A DNA stretch of 56,205 bases from Bryobacterales bacterium (GCA_020847895.1 JADLBG010000642.1:1-56205); one strand, 5' to 3'. Counted from the first letter of the stretch, positions 23,539-41,660 are shown. Notes: generated by a model from the sequence alone, not told the origin. Numbers and translations: made by a program.

Positions 23539-23585
23539 TGGAGCGGGAAACGGGACTCGAACCCGCGACGTCCAGCTTGGGAAAT
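23539..23585 (-). repeat. att repeat A = 3' half of tRNA-Gly(CCC) (anticodon loop to CCA), not a complete tRNA
   Basis: Minus-sense ATTTCCCAAGCTGGACGTCGCGGGTTCGAGTCCCGTTTCCCGCTCCA: TTCCCAA loop, GCGGG-TTCGAGT-CCCGT T-arm, acceptor 3' strand + U + CCA. No complementary 5' acceptor strand is present upstream. Confidence 0.85.
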
Positions 23586-23682
23586 TAAACGCCGTTTGTA
23601 AACAAAAGACTTATGCGTCCAAGGCGTTGATTCTTGGCCACGTAACTCACTGATTCCTCGTGCTCGGTTTTCGCCGCCGTCC

Positions 23683-23706
23683 TTAATGGAGTAAATGGAG
23701 TAACGG
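23683..23706. repeat. tandem 9-mer motif TTA-ATGGAGTAA-ATGGAGTAA-CGG (candidate integrase arm-type site)
   Basis: Near-identical copy at 41545-41568 and a diverged copy at 41758-41780. Two of the three lie about 97 nt inside an att repeat. Confidence 0.45.
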
Positions 23707-23785
23707 CGGTTCCCCATTTTGCGCTTCCCATCCTGACGGCATAATCGCGCCGCTTCCCCAGCGGCAGCCGTGAGGAAACCCCAAC

Positions 23786-23968
23786 GTGAAACAGAAGAGG
23801 ATTCGTGCGCCCAAGCGCGGGACGCCGAGCGCCACCACGCAGAAGATTATCGATCACCTGCTGCGCCTGGCCGATCCTGACGGCCGGCATGACCCGGAGG
23901 TCGAGACCACCATGCTCGTCATGATGCGGGTTCAGCGGCGGACCATCCGCGAGGTGGTGAAGCCGTGA
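23786..23968 (+). CDS. small hypothetical protein upstream of the primase gene
   Basis: 60-aa ORF. Its stop overlaps the primase GTG start. No motif recognised. Confidence 0.3.
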   Translation: MKQKRIRAPKRGTPSATTQKIIDHLLRLADPDGRHDPEVETTMLVMMRVQRRTIREVVKP

Positions 23969-40340: not shown

Positions 40341-40399
40341 TGGTAGTATTCGGGTCGTGCCAAGAGTTAACGCCTTCGACGCAGGAAAGAGGCAAGAAA

Positions 40400-41548
40400 G
40401 TGCGTCGAAAGCGTTTCCAGAAGGGCAGCCTGCAGCCGCGCAAACATGGGCGGCATCGCGTGTGGGTTGCCTCCTGGTGGGAAGACGGCAGCCGCCGGTC
40501 CAAGGTGCTCGGGTTGTGCTCGAAGATGACGAAGGGAGAGGCGGAGTCCGCAATGGCGACGATTCTCCAGCCGATCAACGAGGGCACGTCACGCGGGCCC
40601 AGGCCGGTGTACACGTTCGAGCAGTTCACGAAGGATGTGTACCTGCCGTTTTGCCGCCGCAGTTGGAAGGAATCAACCGCAGGTACGTCGGAGCAGATCG
40701 TCCAGAAGCATCTCGTCCCCGAGTTCGGGCAGGATTTGCTCCACACCATTCGCAGGGATCAATTGCAGGATTTCCTCGACCGGAAGGCCACGGAGTTGTC
40801 GTTCAGCGTGGTGGCCCATCTGCGGTGGTTCCTCAACGGCATCTTCAAATTGGCGTTATCGGACTCCATCATTTCGGGGAATCCGGCGGCCGAGTTGAAG
40901 GTCCCGAAGAAGTGCCAGCCCGGACGTGCGATGCGTCCGCTCACAGAAGAGGAGGTAAACACGTACCTGGAGGCGTTCGGCCTCCGGGAGAAGTTGATCG
41001 CAAGGCTCGCGATCTTCGAAGGCATGCGGCCGGGCGAGATCCTGGCCCTCCGATGGAAGTCGGTGGACGGCGAGATCATCCGGGTGGAGGAACGCGTCTA
41101 CAAGCGGAAGTTCAACACGCCGAAGAACGGCAAGACCCGCGAAGGCGCGATCTCCGACGGCACACTCGAGCTGTTGAGGCAGTGGGCCGATCTGGCGCAG
41201 GACCCGAGTCCGGATGGATTCTTGTTTCCGTCCGAGAAGGTCACGACGCCCATTTCACTCGACAACATCTGGCGGCGGAACATGTGTCCGGTGCTGGAGA
41301 AGATCGGGATGGAGTGGGCCACCTTTCAGGTGTTGCGCAAGACCAACGCCAGCCTGTCGAAGAAGGCGGGTGTCGATCCCAAGGTCGCCTCGGACCAGAG
41401 GGGCCACGGACTCGGCGTCAGCCTGGAGGTCTACACCAGCTCCGACCTGGAGCAGAAACGAGCCGCACTTCGGGCCCTCGAAGCCGCCGTACGGCGGAAG
41501 AGGAAGCCCAAACAGAAACAGCCGTCAGAATTGGCGAAGTCGGCTTAA
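40400..41548 (+). CDS. tyrosine-type site-specific integrase
   Basis: GTG 40400 (AGGAAAGAGG upstream) gives VRRKRFQKGSL. Catalytic-domain signatures are GMRPGEILALRW, LRKT, RGHGL...LEVYT. Confidence 0.9.
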   Translation: MRRKRFQKGSLQPRKHGRHRVWVASWWEDGSRRSKVLGLCSKMTKGEAESAMATILQPINEGTSRGPRPVYTFEQFTKDVYLPFCRRSWKESTAGTSEQIVQKHLVPEFGQDLLHTIRRDQLQDFLDRKATELSFSVVAHLRWFLNGIFKLALSDSIISGNPAAELKVPKKCQPGRAMRPLTEEEVNTYLEAFGLREKLIARLAIFEGMRPGEILALRWKSVDGEIIRVEERVYKRKFNTPKNGKTREGAISDGTLELLRQWADLAQDPSPDGFLFPSEKVTTPISLDNIWRRNMCPVLEKIGMEWATFQVLRKTNASLSKKAGVDPKVASDQRGHGLGVSLEVYTSSDLEQKRAALRALEAAVRRKRKPKQKQPSELAKSA

Positions 41549-41568
41549 TGGAGTAAACGGAGTAACGA
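41545..41568. repeat. tandem 9-mer motif copy 2 (TTA-ATGGAGTAA-ACGGAGTAA-CGA)
   Basis: Overlaps the integrase stop codon, 45 nt from att repeat B. Confidence 0.45.
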
Positions 41569-41613
41569 GGGGTCGGTGGGTTATCCCAAATTGGCTGTAA
41601 GTGCTAGAAAAGA

Positions 41614-41660
41614 TGGAGCGGGAGACGGGACTCGAACCCGCGACGTCCAGCTTGGGAAAT
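41614..41660 (-). repeat. att repeat B = second copy of the tRNA-Gly(CCC) 3' half, not a complete tRNA
   Basis: 46 of 47 nt identical to 23539-23585 (A/G difference at 23549/41624). The sequence 5' of the anticodon loop (minus sense) cannot form the anticodon stem or the acceptor stem. Confidence 0.85.

Follow-up and report, generated by a model that had tools for sequence, protein, structure and literature searches.

A candidate capsid-forming phage satellite family of Acidobacteriota and Alphaproteobacteria, examined from a tail-less element of a Bryobacterales bacterium

The 56,205-bp contig JADLBG010000642.1 of a Bryobacterales bacterium (GCA_020847895.1), a soil/wastewater acidobacterium, carries at positions 23538-41660 an integrated element that encodes terminase, portal and capsid proteins and passes from its last head gene directly into an excisionase-type gene and an integrase. 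The whole contig is referred to as the window. The question raised by the locus is whether a head and packaging set with no tail genes beside it is what a deletion has left of a prophage, or whether it belongs to an element that relies on the tails of a helper phage. To our knowledge, nearly all known phage satellites come from Proteobacteria and Firmicutes, and the phage-inducible chromosomal islands of the capsid-forming kind (cf-PICIs), first described in 2023, are the only satellite class that builds its own capsid. The analysis leaves very little doubt that the element belongs to a maintained, mobile, tail-less family encoding its own capsid, and its most probable nature, at roughly three chances in four, is that of a putative helper-dependent satellite using borrowed tails.

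Open reading frames (ORFs) were called with the aid of frame-specific GC content at third codon positions (GC3). Element ORFs were assigned by Pfam, PHROGs and NCBIfam scans, and the rest of the contig was scanned with Pfam. The genes that carry the argument are listed in their order along the element (aa, amino acids; HTH, helix-turn-helix).

23965-26346, plus strand: P4-family primase-helicase (D5_N 2.4e-30, DUF5906, Zn_ribbon_DnaG, Pox_D5; TIGR01613 at 231 bits against a cut-off of 109)
27270-27746, plus strand: small terminase subunit, TerS (phrog_57, 7.1e-26)
27736-29544, plus strand: large terminase, TerL, of the lambda gpA type, with ATPase and endonuclease (PF05876, GpA_ATPase, 2.3e-89; PF20454, GpA_nuclease, 7.1e-86)
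35257-35805, plus strand: MerR-like HTH protein, candidate regulator of the head operon (MerR_1 4.8e-07; phrog_2474, weak)
35856-36230, plus strand: conserved 124-aa protein immediately upstream of the portal gene (GC3 shift, ribosome-binding site; 36 homologue clusters)
36237-37649, plus strand: portal of the lambda family (Phage_portal_2, PF05136, 1.7e-89)
37756-39501, plus strand: fusion of prohead protease and major capsid protein (Phage_capsid_4 9.5e-55, Peptidase_S78; phrog_4523 8.7e-193; NF045541 at 668 bits against a cut-off of 525)
39504-39722, plus strand: gpW-like head-tail joining protein (adaptor Ad1), 72 aa (phrog_2545 1.8e-14; NF047331 at 61 bits against a cut-off of 33)
39727-40077, plus strand: head decoration/cement protein (Phage_cement_2/DUF2190, PF09956, 1.4e-27; phrog_122, 1e-33)
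40104-40340, plus strand: excisionase-family/AlpA-like HTH_17 protein, Xis-like (PF12728 1.8e-09; TIGR01764 at 33.1 bits against a cut-off of 28.8)
40292-41548, plus strand: tyrosine integrase (Phage_integrase, Phage_int_SAM_3, Phage_int_M; 96% identical in the relative L007; adjoins the tRNA in relatives)

All of the window genes are full length relative to their homologues. An earlier reading of the locus made from the sequence alone (the sequence-only reading) had named the primase-helicase, both terminase subunits, the portal, the protease-capsid fusion, the gpW-like and DUF2190 proteins, the Xis-like protein and the integrase, and each was recovered by the scans in the place given for it. 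It had also described the decoration gene as followed directly by xis and int, which agrees with the boundaries found: the decoration gene, whose start is probably the ATG at 39727, ends at 40077, and the HTH_17 and integrase genes begin at 40104 and 40292. Its statement that tail, baseplate, lysis and CI/Cro-type genes are lacking was likewise borne out, as no tail, baseplate, holin/endolysin or CI/Cro family was matched in the element by Pfam or PHROGs, or in the rest of the contig by Pfam. The stretch 35257-36230, which it had left open as a possible source of tail proteins, was resolved into two genes with the help of GC3; the MerR-like regulator, which is kept upstream of the portal gene in acidobacterial relatives, and the lineage-specific 124-aa protein match no tail family and give no evidence of such a role.

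For the capsid fusion, 1,179 homologues were scored, and the closest (80-96% identity) come from Bryobacterales/Solibacteraceae metagenome-assembled genomes and from soil and wastewater metagenomes, with a large group at about 50% identity in Alphaproteobacteria. When one genome per species was considered, at least 539 genomes contained a relative, and at least 589 related contigs were present in IMG/VR, the best 80 of which are all 27 kb or shorter. From genomes and IMG/VR, 160 loci were fetched (labelled L001 and onwards), and 119 of the 160 were long enough to be listed. Synteny was assessed on these 119 by phmmer, and nearly all have the order primase, TerL, a variable slot, portal, capsid, joiner and cement protein. 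Seven gene-annotated contexts were read (capsid identities of 94, 93, 85, 72, 52 and 50%), and these run from the primase through a toxin-antitoxin (TA) pair, TerS, TerL, variable genes, in some cases the MerR-like gene and a small ORF, the portal, the capsid fusion, a protein of about 72 aa and the decoration protein to the integrase, in some cases with an HTH_17 gene before it. No tail gene was present in any of the seven, and past the integrase, in the contexts that reach there, lies either ordinary chromosome or another mobile element. The tail-less layout recurs down to about 43% capsid identity, wherever a locus reaches past the head genes. Variation in gene order does occur: in L016 and L078 TerS and TerL follow the decoration gene instead of preceding the portal, L016 running MerR, 124-aa protein, primase, portal, capsid, cement, TerS, TerL, integrase and tRNA-Lys over 12.5 kb from att to att.

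When 127 GC3-supported ORFs from the 4 kb or so that follow the head genes in 35 loci were scanned with Pfam, no tail family recurred among the 25 most frequent of the 118 matched families. Within these, Phage_integrase accounted for 16 ORFs, alongside other integrase domains, HTH_17 for four, gpA terminase for two and transposase for two; the others were single housekeeping genes and one neighbouring Mu-like prophage. Tails at the same position in close relatives, which had been raised earlier as the mark of a deletion, are thus missing from the seven contexts and not recurrent in the wider scan.

The ends of the element are formed by two attachment (att) copies.

23538-23585, minus strand: left att copy, the 3' 45-48 nt of tRNA-Gly(CCC), a fragment and not a gene
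41613-41660, minus strand: right att copy, a tRNA-Gly(CCC) 3' fragment adjoining the integrase, the intact tRNA displaced by the neighbouring island

The att repeats that had been placed around the interval are therefore there: direct repeats of 48 nt with one mismatch and a start-to-start spacing of 18,075 bp, enclosing an 18.1-kb element. In minus-strand orientation, the repeat corresponds to the 3' portion of a tRNA-Gly(CCC), spanning the anticodon loop through the CCA, by comparison with the intact tRNA beside the integrase of L002. Both copies match that tRNA only from the anticodon loop onward and diverge upstream, and because ARAGORN and Rfam searches over the whole window returned no intact tRNA, both are taken as fragments. 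The tRNA-Gly(CCC) site of the sequence-only reading thus stands as far as the identity of the repeat goes, but neither copy is an intact tRNA, and the element is the inner member of a tandem array at tRNA-Gly with a second island on its right. The array is recognised from a likeness that extends beyond the repeat (23586-23638 resembles 41661-41713, 77% over 101 nt), from a fall in GC from about 0.62 to about 0.55 right of 43 kb, and from mobile-element and defence genes in the right flank (BilB/C/D, an M78-UvrD-PD-(D/E)XK protein, ParA and PIN_8). Since the tRNA lies on the minus strand, the intact tRNA-Gly must be sought to the right of the element, beyond the contig end and behind the second island. 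The single mismatch (plus-strand A at 23548 against G at 41623) lies on the 3' side of the acceptor stem, and the integrase-proximal copy has the base of the intact L002 tRNA, so that the two copies have different sources, one the element and the other the chromosome.

Integration next to tRNA genes is also seen among the relatives, at more than one target. An intact tRNA-Gly(CCC) is present in L002, L005, L011, L012 and L017, tRNA-Leu(GAG) in L001 and L010, tRNA-Lys(CTT) in L016 and tRNA-Met in L077, and the tRNA always abuts the integrase. Where both ends of a locus are available, tRNA duplications of 46-52 nt enclose elements of 12.1, 12.2, 12.5 and 19.2 kb. Tandem arrays and decayed copies also exist within the family. 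L002 has a fragmented TerL and a short integrase; in L017 (2427-13539) an integrase and a tRNA-Gly fragment precede a copy whose TerL adjoins a truncated capsid gene, with neither portal nor slot, and which ends at the intact tRNA-Gly; and in L097 (14263-21448) a second element with a primase and a capsid-like gene follows the integrase of the first. Decayed copies are expected for any mobile-element family.

Selection on the genes was estimated from pairwise ratios of nonsynonymous to synonymous substitution (dN/dS) between the window and five relatives, at dS of 0.1-1.5. The capsid gives 0.10-0.16, the portal 0.09-0.17, TerL 0.08-0.28, the decoration protein 0.09-0.16 and the integrase about 0.2; the head genes are under purifying selection (dN/dS about 0.1). 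The gpW-like gene has the highest values among the structural genes, reaching 0.63. The family is also mosaic: in the capsid and decoration genes the window shares 82-96% identity with L007, L009 and L012, with TerL at 86-89% and the portal at 81-84% in L007/L009 (64 and 74%, respectively, in L012), while the primase (in L007/L009) and the MerR-like and 124-aa genes (in all three) are only about 25-36% identical.

These data bear directly on the deletion remnant that the sequence-only reading had offered as its alternative, namely a lambda-like prophage that is decaying in place after deletion of the modules for tail, lysis and immunity. The head module is indeed derived from phages and homologous to that of tailed phages such as RcKemmy, and some relatives are damaged, as L002 with its split TerL and short integrase and L017 with its truncated capsid gene and missing portal. 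However, the same boundary of decoration gene, xis-int and tRNA is kept across relatives down to about 50% capsid identity in two phyla, these relatives sit at several different tRNAs, all head and packaging genes keep their full length and evolve under purifying selection, and a P4-type primase replicon stands where a phage would have replication and immunity genes. Nor was any tailed relative found closer than 38% identity: the GenBank phages match the capsid at 38% or less, and the annotated ones are about 40 kb in size. A one-off deletion is rejected because of the tail-less relatives, the varied integration sites, the att duplications, the dN/dS values and the full-length genes, and we give it hardly any credence. 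The candidate-satellite interpretation of the sequence-only reading, by comparison, gains from the recurrence of the tail-less layout and from the constraint on the head genes.

How such an element could spread is suggested by its gene content, which covers integration and excision, replication, packaging, a head and one neck protein, with no tail, lysis or immunity genes; it is from this that helper dependence is inferred. Four non-coding sites enter the proposed cycle.

26353-26474, no strand: candidate replication origin, with 46-nt inverted arms, GTGACGG iterons and an AT-rich centre (putative function)
26484-26592, no strand: conserved non-coding block, candidate cos/packaging or protein-binding site (putative function)
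23686-23703, plus strand: tandem pair ATGGAGTAA-ATGGAGTAA, candidate integrase/Xis arm-type site on the P' side of attP (putative function)
41548-41565, plus strand: second tandem pair ATGGAGTAA-ACGGAGTAA, candidate arm-type site on the P side of attP

Induction would probably be brought about by a helper phage through the MerR-like and/or AlpA-like regulators, upon which Xis and Int would excise the element at the tRNA repeat. The exact 9-mer ATGGAGTAA is confined within the window to the tandem pairs at 23686-23703 and 41548-41565, the left pair belonging to a 31-nt repeat that is 87% identical between the element ends, and after excision these pairs would flank the attP core in the manner of integrase/Xis arm sites, for which they are candidates. 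The primase-helicase would then replicate the element from the iteron origin at 26353-26474; in L007/L009 the origin-like stretch has a different iteron (GTTCAC) where the window has GTGACGG. TerS and TerL would recognise an element-specific site, for which 26484-26592 is the candidate, and fill element-encoded procapsids. This 110-nt block is 88-92% identical in L001, L007, L009 and L017, that is, in all four close relatives that reach there, it is kept even where the adjoining TA pair is of the HicA type instead of the PIN type, and its variation is limited to the centre of a GGCGC...GCGCC dyad; it may be a packaging site. An RNA was also considered for the block and found unsupported, with no Rfam family and no covariation or compensatory pair on either strand. 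The gpW-like protein would cap the portal, and the helper phage would provide an FII-like head-tail attachment protein (unless the 124-aa protein does so), the tail and lysis, the outcome being infectious particles that contain satellite DNA only.

Several observations weigh against this proposal, and the first group concerns the neck and the tail. No head-closure or connector (FII-like) protein is recognisable among the element ORFs. The 124-aa protein has no match in Pfam, PHROGs, NCBIfam or the PDB by sequence and profile searches and no similarity to the head-tail attachment protein of RcKemmy, and its AlphaFold2 model, from a 25-sequence alignment, is unusable at a mean confidence (pLDDT) of 45.7. 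The gpW-like protein is 34% identical (E=6e-10) to an RcKemmy protein annotated by its depositors as 'lambda gpW like protein', and its AlphaFold2 model (pLDDT 71) consists of a helix, a beta-hairpin and a helix, which we take to be the gpW topology. The model, however, has no significant Foldseek match in the PDB, the lambda portal-adaptor chain ranking 24th at E=2.5, and a PDB profile search with the protein came back empty. No HNH nuclease family, a core part of cf-PICIs, was matched in any element ORF by Pfam, PHROGs or NCBIfam; gpA-type terminases have a nuclease domain of their own. The 56-kb contig contains no tail donor, and no helper phage was identified. The cos and origin candidates, for their part, are assigned entirely from conservation and repeat patterns.

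A second alternative is one in which the particles are helper-independent or domesticated and stay tail-less, with tail-independent DNA release and uptake or a role as a compartment of benefit to the host, or in which a dedicated tail locus lies elsewhere, as in a gene transfer agent. This is in line with the report that cf-PICIs make tail-less capsids even without a helper, with the lack of a recognisable connector for tail docking, and with the cargo of the window, which is regulatory and metabolic rather than defensive. Against it, a gpW-like joiner is conserved and is the fastest-evolving structural gene (dN/dS up to 0.63), as would fit adaptation to tails, and the presence of an integrase, att sites and a range of tRNA targets is the mark of a selfish mobile element rather than of a domesticated locus. 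We also know of no tail-independent entry route for HK97-type capsids that bear a portal, which again speaks against such particles. On these grounds, a tail-less or host-adapted particle is considered unlikely.

A second group of adverse observations concerns mobility. In many alphaproteobacterial loci no integrase is seen beside the head genes. L136 (IMGVR_UViG_2585427601_000006, 10,993 bp), a distant relative with 47% capsid identity that seems to come from an isolate genome, has a circularly permuted order: portal, capsid, joiner, cement, 109-aa, 251-aa and 111-aa proteins, primase and TerL. Its junction contains neither integrase nor tRNA; the contig could represent a circle, either episomal or excised, or two copies in tandem, and part of the family may have a different lifestyle. 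The IMG/VR contigs examined show no terminal repeats that would mark complete packaged genomes. Four wastewater metagenome runs, analysed for junctions and coverage in Logan contigs, contain the element at 93-97% of sampled words, and its depth equals that of the flanks (about 5-8x, short contigs), without excess coverage. No attP or empty-site joint occurs in these contigs, which break at the 48-nt repeat, and this is not taken as evidence against excision.

L136 and the loci with no integrase beside the head genes would be accounted for if the family were an episomal replicon resembling a phage-plasmid, integrating only sometimes, with the primase-helicase and iterons maintaining a circle and the capsid serving occasional packaging. 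The window copy and its acidobacterial relatives, on the other hand, are integrated in the chromosome, with int, xis and tRNA att duplications, the element has no partition genes, and its coverage equals that of the flanks in the four metagenomes, which together make an episomal lifestyle very unlikely for it. The helper-dependent satellite remains the preferred interpretation.

Whether this satellite belongs to a known class was considered next to published descriptions. cf-PICIs are described as elements of about 10-18 kb with an integrase, replication and regulation modules, an exclusive packaging module and no lysis or tail module (10.1101/2025.02.11.637232; PMC10085698). Compared with cf-PICIs such as EcCIEDL933 and KpCIDSM30104, the element is similar in size (18,075 bp between the att copies against 10-18 kb, with relatives at 12.1-19.2 kb), in its integrase with att sites and its primase-replicase, in having AlpA-like HTH_17 and MerR_1-like proteins, which are candidates for an inducer-responsive role, in encoding its own TerS, TerL, portal, protease, HK97-type capsid and head-tail adaptor, in lacking tail and lysis genes, and in its variable regions with defence cargo. 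According to published work, cf-PICIs release DNA-filled, tail-less capsids that then bind free tails, the adaptor and connector setting tail specificity, and the rapid evolution of the gpW-like gene therefore fits the picture of an adaptor that adapts to tails, the adaptor being the fastest-evolving structural gene in this case as well.

The differences are as marked as the likenesses are broad. The element is without an HNH nuclease and a recognisable connector, its TerL is of the lambda gpA type and its portal of the lambda family. The terminase and portal families of canonical cf-PICIs presumably differ from these Pfam families. Its protease and capsid are fused, as reported in Firmicutes cf-PICIs only, and it has a DUF2190 decoration protein. 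cf-PICIs have integrase, regulator and primase at one end and an uninterrupted packaging module at the other, an order from which the element departs: it runs primase, TA, TerS, TerL, cargo, MerR, 124-aa protein, portal, capsid, gpW, cement, xis and int, so that the integrase lies at the far end after the head genes and co-directional with them, and a cargo hotspot lies inside the packaging and head module, between TerL and portal. The hosts differ too, being Acidobacteriota and Alphaproteobacteria, in contrast to the published cf-PICI hosts among Proteobacteria (mainly Enterobacteriaceae, Pasteurellaceae and Morganellaceae) and Firmicutes. The cf-PICI likeness proposed by the sequence-only reading is thus justified for the functional definition, which the element appears to fit, and does not extend to canonical membership, given the lack of HNH and connector, the gene order and the gpA-type terminase. 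cf-PICIs are believed to have arisen about three times from phages. The family is probably a derivation from phages independent of theirs. Within a limited literature search, no report was found of satellites in Acidobacteria or of cf-PICIs in Alphaproteobacteria.

Other known systems were considered and dropped. P4 itself lacks genes for capsid, portal and terminase and reshapes the capsid of its helper by means of sid, psu and delta, and no element ORF was assigned to any of these three in the Pfam, PHROGs and NCBIfam scans. The element shares with P4-like satellites a P4-family primase-helicase, an AlpA/excisionase-type HTH protein, a tRNA-targeting integrase and a hotspot of defence cargo (PMC10085698); it was not classed with them, as it encodes its own capsid, portal and terminase, and the presence of portal and capsid likewise led to rejection of a classical PICI. 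Gene transfer agents of the RcGTA type are clusters of phage-derived head and packaging genes in Alphaproteobacteria without lysis or immunity genes, and in this respect the family resembles them. Such agents encode tails, are without integrase, att sites and a replicon of their own, are inherited vertically at one locus and package host DNA, whereas the family has int and att, several tRNA targets, a primase replicon and no tail genes; a gene transfer agent was discarded on account of the int and att and the missing tails.

The likely ancestry is indicated by RcKemmy, a Rhodobacter phage of 41 kb and a lambda-like siphophage with a protease-capsid fusion, whose proteins are 37% (capsid), 44% (decoration protein, gp10) and 34% (gpW-like) identical to those of the element. 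The core order of TerS and TerL, then portal and capsid/protease, then decoration protein is common to both. In RcKemmy the full order is TerS, TerL, gpW-like, portal, capsid/protease, gp10, head-tail attachment protein, minor tail proteins, tube, chaperones and tape measure, so that the neck and tail module starts right after the homologue of the decoration gene, exactly where the satellite family has xis-int. From this order and the 44% identity of gp10, it follows that the family switches to xis-int where the neck and tail of the phage begin. The TerL-portal gap also differs, being about 200 bp in RcKemmy and holding only gpW, as opposed to the cargo slot of the satellite, in which the gpW-like gene comes after the capsid gene.

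This slot is where the earlier gene inventory, sound in what it listed, was incomplete, having left out a minus-strand cargo block with the following content (Pfam).

29580-35083, minus strand: cargo block in the variable slot, 5.5 kb, separating TerL from portal
29580-30443, minus strand: di-haem cytochrome c peroxidase
30443-32551, minus strand: TPR and PD40 beta-propeller protein
32610-33308, minus strand: OmpR-type response regulator
33293-35083, minus strand: histidine kinase

No known defence system was detected in the cargo of the window, the PADLOC overlaps being generic receiver and ATPase domains. Across the family, the distance from TerL to portal, measured in 93 loci, has a median of 3.7 kb and extremes of 85 and 7,844 bp, and the slot holds different genes in every relative. 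Among 129 slot ORFs scanned in bulk against families and PADLOC, parts of restriction-modification systems dominate, with N6_Mtase (nine), N6_N4_Mtase (seven), Eco57I (seven), C5 methylase (five), Type ISP (four), MmeI (three) and ResIII (three) as well as single EcoRI, EcoRII, PstI-like and GmrSD matches; the PADLOC 'mad2' model was matched by 14 slot ORFs, and receiver and histidine-kinase ATPase domains each occur in two slot ORFs of relatives. The slot of L003 and L004 (686-7390; GCA_037025185 and GCA_037025245) contains a Cas3-like gene, a 268-aa ORF, Cas_GSU0053 and Cas_GSU0054, which has the appearance of a type I-U/I-G-like CRISPR-Cas effector set on a putative satellite. A 1,632-aa multi-helicase protein occupies the slot of L005, and MacB-type transporter genes with PadR that of L001. 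The junction of TerL and portal is thus a cargo hotspot, filled across the family mostly by restriction-modification and other defence genes, and the cargo probably pays the host for carriage.

Three further genes lie between the left end of the element and TerS.

23786-23968, plus strand: 60-aa ORF abutting the start of the primase gene (GC3 0.84; phmmer match in L017; no family match)
26589-26990, minus strand: PIN-domain toxin, VapC-like (PF01850, 3.7e-14)
26987-27226, minus strand: 79-aa putative antitoxin (4-nt overlap with the start of the toxin gene, position, GC3; found with PIN in L007, L009 and L017)

The VapBC pair of the sequence-only reading is half supported, by the PIN toxin; the 79-aa partner has no family match in Pfam, PHROGs or NCBIfam. 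The corresponding TA slot of L001, behind the primase gene, is occupied by HicA-type genes and not by PIN.

The surroundings of the element contain further candidate defence genes. The second island (41661-56205, GC about 0.55) lies at the same tRNA-Gly site, its first 50 nt or so resemble the left end of the satellite, and a similar TAATGGAGCAG...GGAGCAGC motif is found near 41750; it extends off the contig, with its integrase and the intact tRNA beyond the visible sequence. It encodes a Bil (ubiquitin-like conjugation) defence system on the minus strand (BilD 41903-43255, BilC 43236-43757, BilB 43711-44241, all at E<=2e-61), and a 163-aa ORF at 44198-44689, with no family match, is a possible BilA. 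Beside the Bil genes, 44795-48166 on the minus strand encodes a 1,123-aa fusion of an M78 (IrrE-like) peptidase, a UvrD helicase and a PD-(D/E)XK nuclease, the helicase being GajB-like in PADLOC (1.8e-56); such a combination in one chain is unusual, and the gene is a candidate for a role in defence. Near the ParA gene (50292-51206, minus strand), a 24-nt repeat rich in ACCCAC, ATACCAACTTACCCACATACCCAC, occurs in five copies at 49760-51579, and these copies are probably parS/iteron-type sites of the right-hand island. The ORFs of the left flank encode ATP synthase, regulators, an efflux operon and defence-like genes (Pfam), the latter forming a cluster (18153-23537) that separates the chromosomal efflux operon from the left att copy. 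This cluster comprises an HEC-03B ATPase at 19476-20882 (PADLOC 1.3e-130; AAA_15/DUF3696), an RNA ligase at 21422-22114, and, all without assignment, a 437-aa ORF at 18153-19466 upstream of the ATPase and three other ORFs.

Taken as a whole, we lean, with some reserve, towards a previously undescribed and independently evolved lineage of capsid-forming satellites. It would be the first such lineage to be reported from Acidobacteriota, with a wide distribution in Alphaproteobacteria as well (at least 539 species genomes), and would derive from lambda-like phages with a protease-capsid fusion and have the gpW-like joiner as its sole tail interface and the TerL-portal junction as a hotspot of defence and other cargo. 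The concept of capsid-forming satellites is already established; what is probably undescribed is a lineage across two phyla. For annotation, it matters that IMG/VR and prophage predictors now list these 12-19-kb elements as (incomplete) viruses.

If functional, the family would widen the host range of capsid-forming satellites to Acidobacteriota, a dominant soil phylum that is hard to work with, and to a large number of Alphaproteobacteria, among them cultivable Paracoccus, Ruegeria, Rhodovulum, Stappia, Bradyrhizobium and Mesorhizobium strains as possible models. It would also represent a different solution to the same task, with packaging and head genes of the lambda type, only one neck protein, which is gpW-like, no HNH nuclease and a defence hotspot placed inside the morphogenesis module, and its joiner, as the fastest-evolving structural gene, would be a testable handle on tail specificity. 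Should the lineage indeed pirate tails as cf-PICIs do, it would constitute a major overlooked route of gene flow in soil and aquatic bacteria, including that of restriction-modification and CRISPR-Cas modules.

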